Positions 1,681 to 52,103 of a stretch of DNA of 55,308 nucleotides are shown in pieces. A model generated the notes under the pieces. That model was not told where the DNA came from. It was given only the letters and a program-made list of their open reading frames with translations, and made no database searches. Source of the stretch: Candidatus Poseidoniales archaeon (lineage in GTDB: Archaea; Thermoplasmatota; Poseidoniia; MGIII; CG-Epi1); the NCBI GenBank assembly GCA_045567955.1, contig JBJLBX010000033.1:1-55308 (forward strand). Direction: 5' to 3'. The translations under genes and the position numbers were made by a program. The stretch's first letter is position 1, and the number at the start of each line of letters is the position of its first letter.

Positions 1681-2517
1681 TCAAAATAACCTTTGTTTTT
1701 TTGAAGCTGCTTCAACCACATTAGACATTAGCATAACTACAGTCATAGGTCCTACACCACCAGGAACTGGAGTCAATGCGCCAGCAACATCTCTAACATC
1801 AAAAGAGGTATCTCCTACTAATCCTTCGTCAGTGCGATTAACTCCAACATCAATTACTACGGCTCCTGGCTTAACCATGTCCTTTGTAACTGTATCTGGA
1901 TAACCTACGGCTACAATCAGAATATCAGCTTCCTTACAAAATTTATGAATGTCTGGTGTTCGGCTGTGACAAACTGTAACTGTTGCATCCATTCCTTTCT
2001 GGAGTAATAAAAGAGATATTGGCTTTCCAACAATCGTACTACGGCCAACAACCACTACATTCTTTCCACTTGGGTCATTTCCTGTACGAGATAATAGTTC
2101 AATAATTCCTGCTGGAGTACATGGTTTCATACCTGAACTTTCTTGTACTATTTTACCCAAATTAATAGGATGGAAGCCATCTACATCATTTTCAGGTTCT
2201 ATTAAATCCAAAACACTTTCATAATCTGTCGGTAAAGGAAGTTGAACAATTATTCCATCTTCTGTTTTATTCAATTTATTTACTAAATTTTCTAATTCTT
2301 TCTTAGATATATCTGAAGAAAGATGATGGTGAGTTAAAGTAATTCCAATACGCTCAGCTGCATTTGCTTTAGCACGAATATAAGATGTAGAAGCTGGATC
2401 TTCACCAACTTGAACAACTGATAATTTTGGAGGTATAGGCATTTGAGCTACCTTCTTTTGTAACTCATCCTCTATTTCTTTTGCAACTTTCTTCCCATCA
2501 ATTAATTTAGCAGTCAA
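1681..2517 (-). CDS. folD: bifunctional methylenetetrahydrofolate dehydrogenase/cyclohydrolase
   Basis: IDGKKVA, DGIIVQLPLP, DVDGFHP, PCTPAG, VGRSTIVGKP, TPVPGGVGPMT. Confidence 0.97.
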   Translation of the reverse strand: MTAKLIDGKKVAKEIEDELQKKVAQMPIPPKLSVVQVGEDPASTSYIRAKANAAERIGITLTHHHLSSDISKKELENLVNKLNKTEDGIIVQLPLPTDYESVLDLIEPENDVDGFHPINLGKIVQESSGMKPCTPAGIIELLSRTGNDPSGKNVVVVGRSTIVGKPISLLLLQKGMDATVTVCHSRTPDIHKFCKEADILIVAVGYPDTVTKDMVKPGAVVIDVGVNRTDEGLVGDTSFDVRDVAGALTPVPGGVGPMTVVMLMSNVVEAASKKQRLF

Positions 2518-2951
2518 TCTAAATCCTCCAATTGATAAAGTTCGACGTCAATGCGAGGACCATCTCCTTGTGCTGCAATTCTTTTTCGAACTATTAACTC
2601 AGAAATTTGCCCATCATCATGGTACAAGACTCCACTAAGGCCATCTTTGATTGATTTAGCTATATTATCGGCATCTGGTCTTTTCGAATGGTGCTCTTCT
2701 TTTCTTGGTACTTTAACCCGCCATTTGCTCTTAGGACAAGGAAAGTATGCAAATATTTCCATACCTAATGGCCCTTCGAATAGACCTTCAATACCTGCCT
2801 TAGTTCGTGCTTTTTGCCCAATATAAGCTATATCTGCCTTGTAAACTTTACTAGGTTTTGGATCTGTAGCAACAACAAAATTACCTTTCCGATAAAATCT
2901 AGGACGGCCTTGAGCAACGGGCTTTCCAGGTAATGTAAATTTGATACGCAC
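2514..2951 (-). CDS. rusA: RusA family Holliday junction endodeoxyribonuclease
   Basis: PGKPVAQGRPRF N-terminus; RPDADNIAKSIKDGL...DDGQI catalytic Asp/Lys motif. Confidence 0.9.
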   Translation of the reverse strand: MRIKFTLPGKPVAQGRPRFYRKGNFVVATDPKPSKVYKADIAYIGQKARTKAGIEGLFEGPLGMEIFAYFPCPKSKWRVKVPRKEEHHSKRPDADNIAKSIKDGLSGVLYHDDGQISELIVRKRIAAQGDGPRIDVELYQLEDLD

Positions 2952-3028
2952 AATAACCCATACGGGGGGGACAAAAAACGTGCTTGTCCAACATATTATT
3001 TTAATTAGGTGCTTACCGGCAGGATATT

Positions 3029-4789
3029 ATGCGTGTCGCTGTCCTCCATGAAGACAGATGCCAACCAAAAAAGTGTCAGAATGAATGTTATAATTTCTGC
3101 CCACCTGTTAGAAATGGGATTGAAGTTATAACTTGGAGAAAAGACAACAAACCTGTTGTTTCTGAACCTTTGTGTATTGGTTGTGGCATATGTGTGCACA
3201 AATGTCCACACGATGCATTAACTATAGTTAATTTGCCTGATGAACAGGAAAAAGATACAGTTCATAGATACGGAATGAATGAATTCCGCTTATTTGGACT
3301 CCCAGCTCCTGAACAAGGAAAAGTCATTGGAATACTAGGTGCAAATGGAACTGGGAAAACAACCGCAATTTCACTTTTAGCTGGAGAAATAATTCCTAAT
3401 CTTGGTGATTGGGAAGATGAAGGTTCCTGGGATGATGTAAAAGATTTTTATTCGGGAACTGATATTCAAAAGCACTTCACCAAATTATCTGATGGGAATA
3501 TTAGTATTGCTCTAAAGCCACAATATGTTGATAGAATACCTCAAATGTTTGATGGAACTTTAAGAGAACTGTTAGAAAGAGTCGCATCACCAGAAAAAGT
3601 TGAAAAATTTGCAACTAAGATTAATTTAACTAGTTTGGATAAAAAATTGACTAAAGTTTCAGGAGGGGAATTACAAAAAGGAGCAATTGCAGCTACAATT
3701 CTCAAAGAAGCAGATCTTTATTTCTTTGACGAACCCTCTTCATATCTTGATATCGAACAAAGAATTTTTATTGCTAGAATGATTTCTGAATTAGGAGAAA
3801 CAAAAAGTGTTATTGTAATTGAACATGACTTAGCTATTTTGGATTATGTAACTGACAATATACATATCATGTACGGAAGTCCAAATGCATATGGAATTGT
3901 TTCACAGAAACTAGCTGTAAGAAATGCAATTAACACTTATTTGGATGGATATATTCAAGAATCAAATGTAAGAATTAGAGATAATGCAATCAAATTTCTA
4001 AAACATCCTCCTAGAACTGGATGGGATGGTCAGGTATTAGTCAAATGGCCTGATCTTTCAAAACAATTAGGTGATTTCAAATTAGAGGCTTCGGCTGGTG
4101 AAATATTGGGTGGACAGGTGTTGGGAGTTGTTGGTGGAAATGCCACTGGAAAAACAACATTTGTAAAAATGCTAGCTAATGAATTAGAACCAGATGCAGG
4201 TGAAATTGAAAGTGATATTACTGTTTCCTATAAACCTCAATACATTAATGCAACTGAAGGTATTGTTGTAGGTGATTTATTACAATCTGTAAAGGGTTTT
4301 GACGAACACATGCTTGCTACGGAACTCAATGTACCTCTTAATCTAGAACCGTTAATGGATCGTGAATTACAGACACTATCAGGTGGAGAATTGCAACGCG
4401 TAGCTATTGCTGAGTGCTTATTGAAGGAAGCTGATCTTTATTTGCTAGATGAACCTTCAGCCTATCTTGATGCAAATCAAAGAATGATTACTGCAAAGAC
4501 AATCAGACGTTCAATGGAACAAAGAGGAAAATCAGCTCTAGTCGTTGATCATGATGTTTATTTTATTGATTATATCTCAGATGGATTATTATGTTTTGAT
4601 GGAATTCCAAGCAAAGAAGGAAAGGCAGAAGGCCCATACAATATGCGTCAAGGGATGAACACCTTCTTAGGTAAAGTAGGTATTACTTTTAGAAGAGACA
4701 AAAATACATACAGACCAAGAATAAATAAACCAGGTTCAAGACTTGATAGAGAACAAAAAAGTAAGAAAGAATTTTACTATTCTAGTTGA
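3029..4789 (+). CDS. rli: ribosome recycling ATPase ABCE1 (RLI)
   Basis: N-terminal two-FeS-cluster domain (CQPKKC..C..FCP; CIGCGICVHKCP), two ABC domains, C-terminal RPRINKPGSRLDREQK. Confidence 0.97.
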   Translation: MRVAVLHEDRCQPKKCQNECYNFCPPVRNGIEVITWRKDNKPVVSEPLCIGCGICVHKCPHDALTIVNLPDEQEKDTVHRYGMNEFRLFGLPAPEQGKVIGILGANGTGKTTAISLLAGEIIPNLGDWEDEGSWDDVKDFYSGTDIQKHFTKLSDGNISIALKPQYVDRIPQMFDGTLRELLERVASPEKVEKFATKINLTSLDKKLTKVSGGELQKGAIAATILKEADLYFFDEPSSYLDIEQRIFIARMISELGETKSVIVIEHDLAILDYVTDNIHIMYGSPNAYGIVSQKLAVRNAINTYLDGYIQESNVRIRDNAIKFLKHPPRTGWDGQVLVKWPDLSKQLGDFKLEASAGEILGGQVLGVVGGNATGKTTFVKMLANELEPDAGEIESDITVSYKPQYINATEGIVVGDLLQSVKGFDEHMLATELNVPLNLEPLMDRELQTLSGGELQRVAIAECLLKEADLYLLDEPSAYLDANQRMITAKTIRRSMEQRGKSALVVDHDVYFIDYISDGLLCFDGIPSKEGKAEGPYNMRQGMNTFLGKVGITFRRDKNTYRPRINKPGSRLDREQKSKKEFYYSS

Positions 4790-36894: not shown

Positions 36895-36970
36895 AGCCCC
36901 CTAGTGTAGCGGTCCATCATTCAGGCCTTTGGAGCCTGAGACCTCGGTTCGAATCCGAGGGGGGCTACCA
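36895..36970 (+). tRNA. tRNA-Gln(UUG), CCA encoded
   Basis: AGCCCCC/GGGGGCT acceptor stem with A1-U72, anticodon arm CAGGC-CTTTGGA-GCCTG, GGTTCGAATCC T-arm, ACCA end. Confidence 0.97.
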
Positions 36971-50104: not shown

Positions 50105-50725
50105 TTAATTTTCCCTGACAAAACCACACTCTTTACATTCATAATCTGGATATAAATCAGGATTGTTCGGTGATGCACCATGCCAATGGAAAGTATATTT
50201 TCCACACTTAACACAATATGAATTCTGTTTGTATCCAGTATATGCATGAGGTCGTTGTTGCATTACTGGTGTAACTGGTATTTGAGACGCTGAAGATGCT
50301 ATTGGTTGAGAATTGGCAACTGGTTCTTCAATTTTTTCTTCTTCTGTAACTGCCTCAGTAGGAGATCCTGAGTCTATATCTCCTGGGTCAGTTATCAATA
50401 CAGCTACAACCGGACATACTTCTTCGCAAGCTCTGCAAATAATACAATCTGGCTCTCTGGCCATTATTGCTTTCTTATCAGAAGCAGGATGGTTTGGAGT
50501 ATCAATCCAATCGTAAACATCTACAGGACAAGCTTCAATACAAGCTCCATCGGCTACACAAATATCAAAATCGACAGCGACAACACTTCCCCATATTCCT
50601 AGTTTATCAGTTCCAACTCCACCATATGAATCGGAATCTTTAGCCCAAATTTGAATTGGTTCATCGTCTCCATCGTGGGTTGCAACTTTTGCATATGTAG
50701 TCAGGAAATTCTTGGCAATGCTCAT
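50105..50725 (-). CDS. 7Fe Zn-ferredoxin-like protein fused to a C-terminal Zn ribbon
   Basis: CVADGAC..ACP and CIICRAC..VCP; Pro/Ser/Glu linker; CVKC...CKEC. Confidence 0.82.
   Translation of the reverse strand: MSIAKNFLTTYAKVATHDGDDEPIQIWAKDSDSYGGVGTDKLGIWGSVVAVDFDICVADGACIEACPVDVYDWIDTPNHPASDKKAIMAREPDCIICRACEEVCPVVAVLITDPGDIDSGSPTEAVTEEEKIEEPVANSQPIASSASQIPVTPVMQQRPHAYTGYKQNSYCVKCGKYTFHWHGASPNNPDLYPDYECKECGFVREN
50553..50659 (-). repeat. 107-bp perfect inverted copy of 29313-29419 (ferredoxin paralogs)
   Basis: Reverse complement matches base for base on manual alignment. Confidence 0.9.
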
Positions 50726-50764
50726 TTAACAGTACTCCTCACAGATGTCATTTAGGAGGGGGTT

Positions 50765-50787
50765 TATTTCTTTTATAGAAAGAAATA
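50765..50787. promoter_or_regulatory. palindrome overlapping the TATA box of the ferredoxin paralog
   Basis: TATTTCTTT-N5-AAAGAAATA, enclosing minus-strand TATAAAAG. Confidence 0.45.
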
Positions 50788-50864
50788 TATTGTTAATCGT
50801 CTTAAGAAACGTTCGTCCGGTCGATATAAATAGAGTATAATAGAGTCACTAACGCCCAAAATTA

Positions 50865-51235
50865 AAGTGGGCACAGTTCTGTCGACCTTCTCACGTCAGT
50901 TGACATTGCTGTACCCGGGGTGGAATTGGGTCCTGATCCTAAGATCAGGTTCCTCTTCCGGCGTACAAGTTTCGTTTTCCCACGACATCTCGCCTGTTTT
51001 CCTGGCTTGCGTGCTTAGATCGTTTCCCCTTGGTTTTTAACTTGTTTCCCTCTTTTCCCGCTCAAATTGTTTCCCCCAGTGTCCCGGTTGTTTCCTTTTT
51101 TGCATTCAAAGATCGTTTCCCCTTAGTTTCCCAAGTTGTTTCCTTCTAGGCTTTTTCCCTTACTCCTTGAGTTGGCTTCATAACCCGAAGGTCATGTTTC
51201 CCAGAGTGCGGGAACTTTACATGGACAGGGGGAGT
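50865..51235 (-). ncRNA. putative structured non-coding RNA with repeated GGAAAC motifs
   Basis: No credible ORF; elevated GC; CAUGACC-UUCG-GGUUAUG hairpin, CCUGAUC-UUAG-GAUCAGG hairpin, long 3' hairpin followed by U-rich tract; 8 exact GGAAAC. Confidence 0.7.
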
Positions 51236-51318
51236 ATATACTACCTTTCGGATACACTTAAATATGATGAGCGCAAGAATGTTATTTTACGTATCTTTTT
51301 TACACTTTTTAATGATAA

Positions 51319-51615
51319 TTACTTTTTCCAGATGTGGCCAGTGTCATCCAAATCAAAAATAGATCTAAGTAATTCATCTGAAAACTTCTTACCAATGTCA
51401 TCTGCTGCATCAAAATAAGATCTTAACGCAACCATATCTACATCAGACTTTTCAATATCAAACCCAACATTTACTTCAAAGTTAAAAATAACTTCACTAG
51501 CTTCTTCATCTAAAATGAATGATTGAAGATAACCTGCCTCAACCATTATTTCTGCTAAATCTATGAGTTTCCTGCCTCTATCTGTGCTATAAATTTGAAA
51601 CCTTACCTTAGGCAT
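51319..51615 (-). CDS. small acidic hypothetical protein
   Basis: 98-aa ORF from probable ATG 51615 (MPKVRFQIY). Confidence 0.65.
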   Translation of the reverse strand: MPKVRFQIYSTDRGRKLIDLAEIMVEAGYLQSFILDEEASEVIFNFEVNVGFDIEKSDVDMVALRSYFDAADDIGKKFSDELLRSIFDLDDTGHIWKK

Positions 51616-51635
51616 ATTATTGAAAGTAGGCAATA

Positions 51636-52103
51636 CTATAAGTGTATATTTGCCATCTTGCAAACTTCATCAAAATGTTTCTTTTCAACAGGCTGTACTG
51701 ATAATCTTTGGCCGCGCTTGATTACAAGCATCTCTTCTAAGCTATCATTCTCTTTTAATTGATTCAGTGACACCATTTCATCGAACTTAGTTACTGGTTC
51801 CATATCTACCAAAAACCATCTAGGTACTTCTTCTGTCGCTTTAGGGTCATAATATTTTGATTTCTTATCAAACTGTGTAATATCAGGATATGATTCTTTA
51901 CAAATTTTGGAAATTCCTGCAATATGTGGAGGTTTGGTATTGGAATGATAATAGAGAACCATATCTCCAATACGCATTTTGTCTCTCATGAAATTTCTAG
52001 CCTGATAATTACGAACACCATCCCAATGAGTACTGCCATCCTTAATTAAATCATCAAAGGAGTAAACATGGGGTTCACTTTTCATCAACCAATAATTTGT
52101 CAT
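51636..52103 (-). CDS. EVE domain-containing protein
   Basis: YWLMKSEP, WDGVRNYQARN, GDMVLYYHS, YYDPK, RLSVQPV. Confidence 0.95.
   Translation of the reverse strand: MTNYWLMKSEPHVYSFDDLIKDGSTHWDGVRNYQARNFMRDKMRIGDMVLYYHSNTKPPHIAGISKICKESYPDITQFDKKSKYYDPKATEEVPRWFLVDMEPVTKFDEMVSLNQLKENDSLEEMLVIKRGQRLSVQPVEKKHFDEVCKMANIHL

Follow-up and report, generated by a model that had tools for sequence, protein, structure and literature searches.

A conserved, modular structured RNA downstream of an EVE-domain gene in a marine Poseidoniales archaeon, possibly a multivalent scaffold or sponge

What occupies the largest gap between genes in the 55,308-nucleotide stretch of Candidatus Poseidoniales archaeon DNA analyzed here (contig JBJLBX010000033.1 of assembly GCA_045567955.1, henceforth the window), and what might it do for the cell? 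A first-pass annotation had placed in this gap a stable minus-strand RNA carrying an array of GGAAAC repeats, and had proposed that this RNA acts as a sponge for a protein. Our analysis shows that the minus strand at ~51237–50858 is a stand-alone structured RNA gene of ~340–380 nt, of which a core at ~51206–50868 (~340 nt) is backed by contig evidence. That this is a real, conserved, structured and highly represented RNA we regard as close to certain; the fuller statement, that it is an abundant structured noncoding RNA (ncRNA) on which several copies of a single partner gather, with the RNA serving as their multivalent scaffold or sponge, has in our judgment about an even chance of being correct.

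The gap itself (50726–51318, 593 nt) is indeed the longest in the window without an open reading frame (ORF) of at least 100 amino acids (aa), and the RNA block within it has a GC content of 0.45–0.49, compared with 0.30–0.40 in its surroundings, in agreement with the first-pass annotation. Direct reading of the minus strand recovers all of the elements listed there, namely eight GGAAAC copies (51022, 51044, 51069, 51090, 51115, 51126, 51138 and 51196), a cUUCGg hairpin (51196–51179), a cUUAGg hairpin (50949–50932), the terminal hairpin (50916–50909 with 50876–50869), the U-rich tract, the TTTAAG box and longer repeat units that recur at 51017/51110 and 51087/51135. The total number of GGAAAC copies is unremarkable, with 30 in the window where 23.5 ± 4.3 are expected (10 of 100 shuffles gave at least 30) and 361 on both strands of the genome assembly, which has 993,492 bases and is 76% complete. 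Their clustering, in contrast, is exceptional: eight of the 30 lie within 51022–51201, and the densest 200-nt window of the genome is this locus with eight copies, the runner-up having two. The minus strand also folds to −112 kcal/mol, compared with −97.0 ± 5.5 kcal/mol for shuffled sequences (z = −2.71), and none of 100 shuffles did as well.

The repeats form part of a row of hairpins. Four tandem modules of ~46–48 nt (M1–M4) share the plan G-GAAAC-AA-[4-5 bp stem + tetraloop]-GG-GAAAC-R, and they are flanked by two related hairpins (M0 and M5) and by a terminal hairpin, with the U-tract closing the RNA. This period accounts for the repeat spacings noted earlier, as well as for a self-similarity of the RNA at a 94-nt offset, which amounts to only 77% identity over 57 nt and thus indicates that the modules have diverged. 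Counting outward from the stem, the facing strands present A/G, A/G, C-G, A/A, A/A, A/A and G-C, with a short outer helix beyond in M1–M3, and, as far as the sequence allows us to judge, the paired GAAAC strands would form a pseudo-two-fold-symmetric internal loop (G-C, AAA/AAA, C-G). The proposed GGAAAC array thus holds as a repeated and clustered motif, but not as a series of loose, single-stranded sites, as in M1–M4 the copies are the facing strands of an internal loop. A K-turn was also considered, with the GA ahead of the outer helix fitting in M1 and M3, and was rejected by inspection: the bulge has 2 nt, and the next pairs do not form.

This modular structure was tested on independent MAFFT alignments that were not fitted to the structure, using as controls partners slid by 1–3 columns and 500 shuffles. 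With 15 sequences, 95.1% of the alignment cells at 67 pairs were paired (22–43% when slid) and 17 pairs showed compensatory changes (2–3 when slid); with 59 distinct sequences, the corresponding values were 96.1% at 70 pairs (24–42% when slid) and 21 compensatory pairs (2–4 when slid), so that the conservation with covariation that had been suggested as a check is present. In four of five covariation measures on the 59 sequences, the observed value was reached by none of the 500 shuffles. RNAalifold, applied to 10 sequences, gave 81 pairs, with compensatory changes in 19.

Within these 59 sequences the support is spread across the modules, as follows. The inner stem of M1 is 100% paired with one compensatory pair, and M2 has five such pairs over its inner and outer helices; M3 is the weakest module, with 84–89% of cells paired and two compensatory pairs. 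In the terminal hairpin 100% of the cells pair, and the outer and the inner helix contribute one compensatory pair each. The GAAAC strands, in turn, are invariant in 59 of 59 sequences on the 5′ side of M0, on both sides of M1, on the 3′ side of M2, on the 5′ side of M3 and on both strands of M4. The 5′ GAAAC of M2 changes from C to G in 12 of the 59, and M4 carries an extra A on both strands in 15 of them, the window included. The tetraloops of M1, M3 and M4 vary, and only the GACA of M2 is kept. Such a combination, in which the stems covary and the strands of the enclosed loop stay constant, is what a functional internal loop usually shows.

The same repeats could in principle act as DNA, whether as origin boxes, iterons or an array of regulator sites, an outcome that the first-pass annotation had itself set against its proposal. 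GGAAAC resembles part of the archaeal origin-box consensus, and its spacings of 11, 12 and 21–25 nt are close to multiples of a helical turn. An archaeal origin would be expected to have an AT-rich unwinding region between inverted origin boxes, with orc1/cdc6 as its neighbor. However, the compensatory changes preserve RNA hairpins, all GGAAAC copies lie in one orientation within a block that is GC-richer rather than AT-rich, the only Orc1/Cdc6 gene found is on another contig (C31), and the stretch reaches very high depth in RNA libraries. On these grounds we reject DNA-level roles, which we consider scarcely credible.

The evidence from RNA libraries comes from public marine data, in which 24 runs from 13 studies contain part of a 2-kb stretch around the locus, 21 of the 24 being recorded as RNA. 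We compared depth over 50100–52110 in contigs of four of these studies (runs X2, X5, X6 and X19), with the flanking genes as an internal control. Over 50984–51187, the summed depth was 686,000–859,000 in X2, 227,000–615,000 in X6, 2,281–3,766 in X5 and 234–435 in X19 (a run of 6.4 million letters), while flanking-gene bins, with the exception of 50508–50575, lay between 0 and 11.5. Contig cover is restricted to ~50848–51255, and the summed depth there exceeds that of the flanking genes by a factor of 100 to 100,000. We take these figures as no more than suggestive, although a very abundant RNA is the explanation that a contrast of this size, seen in each of four studies, most readily allows. 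All listed adaptor-bearing contig ends share one orientation, which is also that seen at 51469 in the neighboring minus-strand gene, and this fits a minus-strand RNA. A circular RNA or splicing-type processing was considered and rejected, as no joints were reported for the contigs of these four studies.

Where would this RNA begin and end? A cTTTAA box lies 29–32 nt before the mature 5′ end in at least seven of the 28 tRNA genes of the genome, and the TTTAAG at 51262–51257 matches this box, which predicts an RNA start near 51237–51235. The TATATAC at 51240–51234, if it were used as a TATA box, could instead predict a start near 51215–51208. We note that the tRNA-gene box (first T 29–32 nt ahead, for example at the tRNA gene at window 36895–36967) provides a usable promoter consensus for this organism. 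As seen through contigs only, the possible transcript ends range from 51237 to 51202 at the 5′ side and from 50868 to 50858 at the 3′ side. One contig from the X19 run and one adaptor-bearing X2 contig end at 50868, and adaptor-bearing contigs end near 51202–51206 in X2 and X6, which we take as a weak hint of the ends of the mature RNA. The AAGUUCCCG segment may be removed from the mature RNA, as the RNA contigs seem to halt at ~51202–51206; the AAGU/ACUU closing helix to which it would contribute is predicted by RNAalifold with zero compensatory changes. Taken together with the covariation and the depth in marine RNA libraries, the promoter-like box and the U-tract end bear out the part of the first-pass annotation that called for a stand-alone, stable, structured minus-strand RNA.

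The ends also bear on whether the RNA is a cis-acting leader or a processed piece of an mRNA, for example the 5′ untranslated region of the ferredoxin-like gene. The RNA is on the same strand as both of its neighbors, and the ferredoxin-like gene is usually the next one downstream (Table 1). However, the conserved U-tract is followed by a separate conserved TATA-like block ahead of the downstream gene, the distance to that gene differs by more than 1 kb between relatives, and contig depth drops 100 to 100,000-fold at both borders, such that we judge a leader or mRNA fragment to be very improbable.

Table 1. Features of the RNA locus and its neighbors in the order of minus-strand transcription (window coordinates; the RNA index is 51235 minus the window coordinate)
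Feature	Window coordinates	Strand	RNA index	Remarks
TSP3-repeat protein, 1063 aa	52103-55294	-		only 52-95% identity among relatives
EVE-domain gene, 155 aa	51636-52103	-		Pfam EVE, E = 6.9e-57
Accessory ORF, 114 aa, no known family	51319-51663	-		between EVE gene and RNA; overlaps end of EVE gene by ~25 nt
TTTAAG TATA-like box in invariant block CTCATCATATTTAAGT	51257-51262	-		invariant in 15/15 genome copies
TATATAC, second TATA box or initiator region	51234-51240	-		invariant except last base in 15/15 copies
AAGUUCCCG segment, 5′ leader or 5′ strand of closing helix with ACUU 50868-50865	51209-51217	-		near-invariant in 59 sequences
M0: GGGAAAC-[6-7 bp stem, UUCG loop]-GAAGCC	51174-51202	-	33-61	compensatory in 3/7 stem pairs; 5′ GGAAAC invariant in 59/59
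M1: AGA-AG-GAAAC-AA-[CUUGG GAAA CUAAG]-GG-GAAAC-GA-UCU	51110-51147	-	88-125	both GAAAC invariant in 59/59
M2: GAAAC-AA-[CCGG GACA CUGG]-GG-GAAAC + outer helix	51059-51104	-	131-176	GACA loop invariant in 59/59
M3: AGA-GG-GAAAC-AA-[variable 3-4 bp stem-loop]-GG-GAAAC-GA-UCU	51017-51053	-	182-218	5′ GAAAC invariant in 59/59
M4: GG-A(A)AAC-AG-[4 bp stem, GAUG loop]-GG-GA(A)AAC	50974-51001	-	234-261	inner stem compensatory in 4/4; 100% of cells paired
M5: GGAAGAGGAAC-[7 bp stem, UUAG loop]-GACCCAAUUCC	50922-50959	-	276-313	compensatory in 4/13 pairs; 98-99% of cells paired
Terminal hairpin: 8-bp base GGGUACAG/CUGUGCCC (50916-50909/50876-50869) + inner GUC/GAC helix	50869-50916	-	319-366	
ACUUUAAUUUU, U-rich termination tract	50858-50868	-		conserved
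TTTATATC, likely separate promoter of ferredoxin-like gene	50823-50830	-		in conserved block CTATTTATATCGAACGG past non-conserved spacer
Ferredoxin-like gene	50105-50725	-		downstream in 23/28 contigs with at least 2500 nt downstream

How widely is the RNA shared? In a BLAST search, 10 of the 24 genomes sampled from the window's genus carried the element, at 77–97% identity, as against none of 16 other genomes. A covariance model of the whole element (R1) matches 15 of 32 genomes of the genus and none of 13 genomes from three other genera of the order. Among 151 genomes of the class, R1 found nothing real in the 132 outside the window's family, and its one match beyond the genus was spurious (38 nt, 16.7 bits). 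The first-look filter of this search scored only 9–45 candidates per genome, so that diverged relatives may have been missed. A pattern for the 3′ domain retrieved 64 marine metagenome contigs and no match in viral contigs. R1 in turn matches all 65 loci formed by these contigs and a related public record (L085, 415.5 bits), 57 of them at full length and eight cut at contig ends. By the limits of the model all copies measure 374–385 nt, and thus the number of modules is fixed.

Within the genus, RNA-bearing genomes fall on most major branches of a tree built from the 3.3-kb locus of the signal recognition particle (SRP) RNA, and the RNA-lacking ones nest among them, such that restriction of the RNA to a clade within the genus is unsupported. 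In two of the RNA-lacking genomes (G006 and G043) the contig stops right beside the ferredoxin gene. We also observed that the assemblies of many relatives break in or beside one of three genes, those of EVE, the RNA and the ferredoxin. The locus seems difficult for assemblers, and some of the apparent absences may have this origin; our reading is that the ancestor of the genus already had the RNA and that assemblies often miss it, with real losses also possible.

Two further observations concern GGAAAC motifs in other genomes. A triple-GGAAAC pattern, searched in 301 genomes of the class, matched all 15 RNA-bearing genomes and elsewhere mostly coding tandem repeats. Other genomes of the genus contain long runs of an 18-nt unit (GGAAACGGATTAACTAAC and variants; G011:C29:1930-2223, G020:C40:23474-23533 and G005:C164:17-58), whose period is a multiple of three, and these are thus probably coding tandem repeats unrelated to the RNA. 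The triple pattern also matched one unrelated element in genus g9, from another family of the class, which lies in a gene-free stretch of ~1 kb between a fumarase-like and a beta-propeller-like gene (minus strand, L205 ~2720-3715 = G093:C18 ~55219-56214; also L198-L204). It is kept in seven genomes, has a GC content of 0.50–0.54 compared with 0.40–0.45 around it, is packed with UUCG-type hairpins with compensatory changes, contains several GGAAAC motifs and has no Rfam match. It looks like a large undescribed structured RNA, and nhmmer found no likeness between it and the profile of our RNA at E up to 100.

The gene neighborhood raises the question of a partner. In the direction of transcription, the order is the large TSP3-repeat protein, the EVE gene, sometimes the 114-aa ORF, the RNA, the ferredoxin-like gene at a variable distance and a ceramidase-like gene. 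Among the genome loci, eight of 15 have the 114-aa ORF, as do 19 of 32 among the metagenome loci. It has no match in Pfam, NCBIfam or PADLOC, and in Atlas only a 0.82 match to a hypothetical archaeal cluster. As an obligatory partner this ORF was rejected, as seven of the 15 genome and 13 of the 32 metagenome loci lack it, and a search of five genomes without it at the locus did not find it anywhere else. The EVE protein, on the other hand, is a typical THYN1-like protein whose relatives in the PDB include 2eve and THYN1, the closest being a Leishmania protein and Pseudomonas EVE proteins. Its gene lies directly upstream on the same strand at 15 of 15 genome loci and on 32 of 32 metagenome contigs with at least 1000 nt upstream, while the downstream side varies.

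This constancy is an argument for a dedicated partnership, in which one base of GGAAAC (for example, an A or the C) would be modified and each loop read by the EVE protein. A parallel is available in the beta- and gamma-proteobacteria, where the EVE gene is reported to lie next to ssrS, the gene of 6S RNA, and EVE is proposed to read a modified base in that RNA (Bell, Wolf, Koonin 2020, PMC7641849). However, this precedent is itself only a proposal. In addition, 262 of the 301 genomes searched in the class have THYN1-like EVE orthologues with 56–68% identity without having the RNA, the co-presence of the two genes in the same 15 of 32 genomes is not independent, as the genes are adjacent, and no modification enzyme is seen at the locus. 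In eight related genomes whose EVE locus lacks the RNA, an aminotransferase-like gene follows EVE in six, and SRP RNA lies within 1.2 kb in two (both g10), of which the latter would favor a link between EVE and abundant RNAs. Taken together, the wide occurrence of EVE without the RNA and the aminotransferase-like neighbor indicate that EVE is independent of the RNA. The RNA gene may have arisen next to EVE by chance, and we consider the dedicated partnership unlikely.

In two genomes of g10, the SRP RNA is beside the EVE gene or within ~1.1 kb downstream of it (L271:801-1112 (-), 130.1 bits; L270:590-902 (+), 125.8 bits), and this may be a further instance of EVE next to an abundant ncRNA, or chance. 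We also note that the EVE copies of the two sister genera in the window's family have only ~30% identity, compared with the 56–68% found across the class, a pattern that could reflect gene replacement or transfer. The distant EVE genes of these sister genera (g13 and g14) were considered as RNA-linked and rejected, since they stand in a dense coding context with no adjacent RNA.

Taking the structure and the neighborhood into account, we hypothesize that the repeated symmetric GAAAC/GAAAC loops are putative docking sites, and that the RNA would gather a single kind of partner in several copies. The simplest candidate would be an RNA-binding protein that forms dimers, as the symmetry of the loops suggests. 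The upstream EVE protein is the only candidate partner suggested by the locus itself.

Several results weigh against so full a reading. Of the 32 genomes in the genus, 17 lack the RNA but only four lack SRP RNA, and thus the recovery of the RNA (15 of 32 compared with 28 of 32) is below that predicted from incompleteness alone. The G-C and C-G pairs that define the internal loop are invariant, such that covariation cannot confirm its register, and the fifth covariation measure, which concerns further pair types, was reached by 182 of 500 shuffles. The depth values are taken from assembled contigs only, sum the contributions of other organisms and cannot rank genes or show ends, strand or level, and the flanking bin at 50508–50575 reaches 977 in X6 and 39 in X5, probably from the ferredoxin genes of other organisms. 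Finally, CsrA (PF02599) was not found in the 76%-complete genome, with control genomes positive, and a search of that genome for the paired module gave four matches out of four at the locus and none elsewhere, although targets that carry a single motif may exist. These last two results weaken the classical sponge that competes with mRNAs. We therefore prefer to speak of a multivalent scaffold or sponge rather than of a classical sponge, with RNA-only assembly or ligand binding and the EVE partnership as the main rivals.

In the RNA-only case, the loops and the GNRA-type tetraloops (GAAA, GACA) would make tertiary or intermolecular RNA contacts, or bind an ion or a small ligand. Instead of soaking up a protein, the RNA would then build or assemble itself into a particle, or would buffer a ligand. 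The invariant, purine-rich loop strands would suit such a function, as would the unchanging GACA tetraloop of M2, the lack of other module copies in the genome as competing targets, and a very high abundance, as in other orphan structured RNAs. RNA-only multimers have been reported for large orphan RNAs of bacteria. However, no receptor-like motif was identified, and the loops of M1, M3 and M4 vary, contrary to what conserved loop-receptor contacts would entail. We consider an RNA-only function possible, if on the unlikely side.

This conserved and strongly structured RNA is of interest for several reasons. To our knowledge, few orphan, highly expressed structured archaeal RNAs have been described, and we know of none built as a multivalent array; a literature search likewise found no archaeal multivalent-array RNA of such a kind. 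The RNA appears to dominate the signal of its organism in the RNA libraries of several ocean studies, and thus probably matters to the cell, and its simple plan, with one invariant loop presented four times on covarying stems, makes the hypothesis testable in vitro even though the host is uncultured. Were the EVE link true, the RNA would open a first experimental way to learn what it is in RNA that stand-alone EVE proteins recognize. A bolder reading would make it the founding member of a new archaeal RNA class, in which four to six GAAAC/GAAAC loops would assemble several copies of a dimeric reader (possibly EVE on modified bases) into a defined particle, and which would be among the most abundant transcripts of a widespread genus of marine plankton. 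We think this improbable; if true, archaea would have an RNA to set beside the global regulators of bacteria such as CsrB or 6S, as well as the first testable case, on a simple repeated site, of a long-suspected link between EVE and abundant ncRNAs.

How, then, does this RNA compare with known ones? A scan of the whole window against Rfam 15 (4227 models) returned only a tRNA elsewhere and no family at the RNA locus, as the first-pass annotation had anticipated. A permissive scan of the locus (E up to 10) gave two chance-level matches, of 15.7 bits (threshold 35) and 12.6 bits (threshold 85). The former, to a eukaryotic frameshift signal, was rejected, as it stems from the heptamer GGGAAAC alone and there is no minus-strand ORF of at least 40 aa here. 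RNase P RNA (RF00373) has no match at the locus even at E up to 10, and archaeal SRP RNA (RF01857) has none either; the real RNase P and SRP RNAs of the genome lie on other contigs (C3:182-472, 207.3 bits, and C32:4936-5246, 174.5 bits, respectively) and by themselves mark the organism as an archaeon, in line with the earlier view that the element is not RNase P RNA, SRP RNA or a tRNA.

Among regulatory RNAs, the bacterial CsrB/RsmZ and CrcZ are alike in being stand-alone, abundant RNAs of a few hundred nucleotides in which a GGA-containing, purine-rich motif is repeated on a row of hairpins, and in their multivalency, possibly toward a dimeric partner. They differ in that the present host is archaeal, with no Rfam match and no CsrA gene found. 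Unlike in CsrB/RsmZ, the motifs here face each other in pairs in internal loops rather than lying in hairpin loops, and there are no look-alike sites elsewhere in the genome; a GGA is contained in every GGAAAC, with one copy (in M1) in a hairpin loop and the rest in internal-loop strands. The ToxI RNAs of type III toxin-antitoxin systems likewise consist of tandem RNA repeat units, each binding one copy of a protein; there the units are near-identical and directly precede an endoribonuclease toxin gene, whereas here they have diverged and follow the protein genes, with a promoter of their own. The neighbors of the locus (EVE, the 114-aa ORF and the ferredoxin-like gene) include nothing that resembles a toxin, and PADLOC gave no significant match. 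Marine small-RNA groups reportedly described by Shi et al. in 2009 and IMES RNAs reportedly described by Weinberg et al. in 2009 stand outside this comparison.

The pairing of 6S RNA with EVE (PMC7641849) resembles our locus in that the gene of a very abundant ncRNA lies beside a slow-evolving, stand-alone EVE gene. It differs in the gene order, which here is EVE and then the RNA, and the link between EVE and 6S RNA is itself only a genomic inference. 6S RNA itself is one rod with a central bubble, whereas the window RNA is a row of seven hairpins with no Rfam 6S match.

A literature search found no description of this RNA. Closest in kind is Tan1 (Thalassoarchaea ncRNA 1; Hou et al. 2016, PMC5069720). 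Like the present RNA it is described as an orphan, highly abundant structured ncRNA of uncultured marine planktonic Euryarchaeota found via metatranscriptomes, and it is set apart by its description, rather than by sequence, through its group II host and its length of 229 nt. We file the RNA of the window as a new family, a variant of the multivalent sponge or scaffold kind, whose nearest published counterpart, compared by description only, is Tan1.

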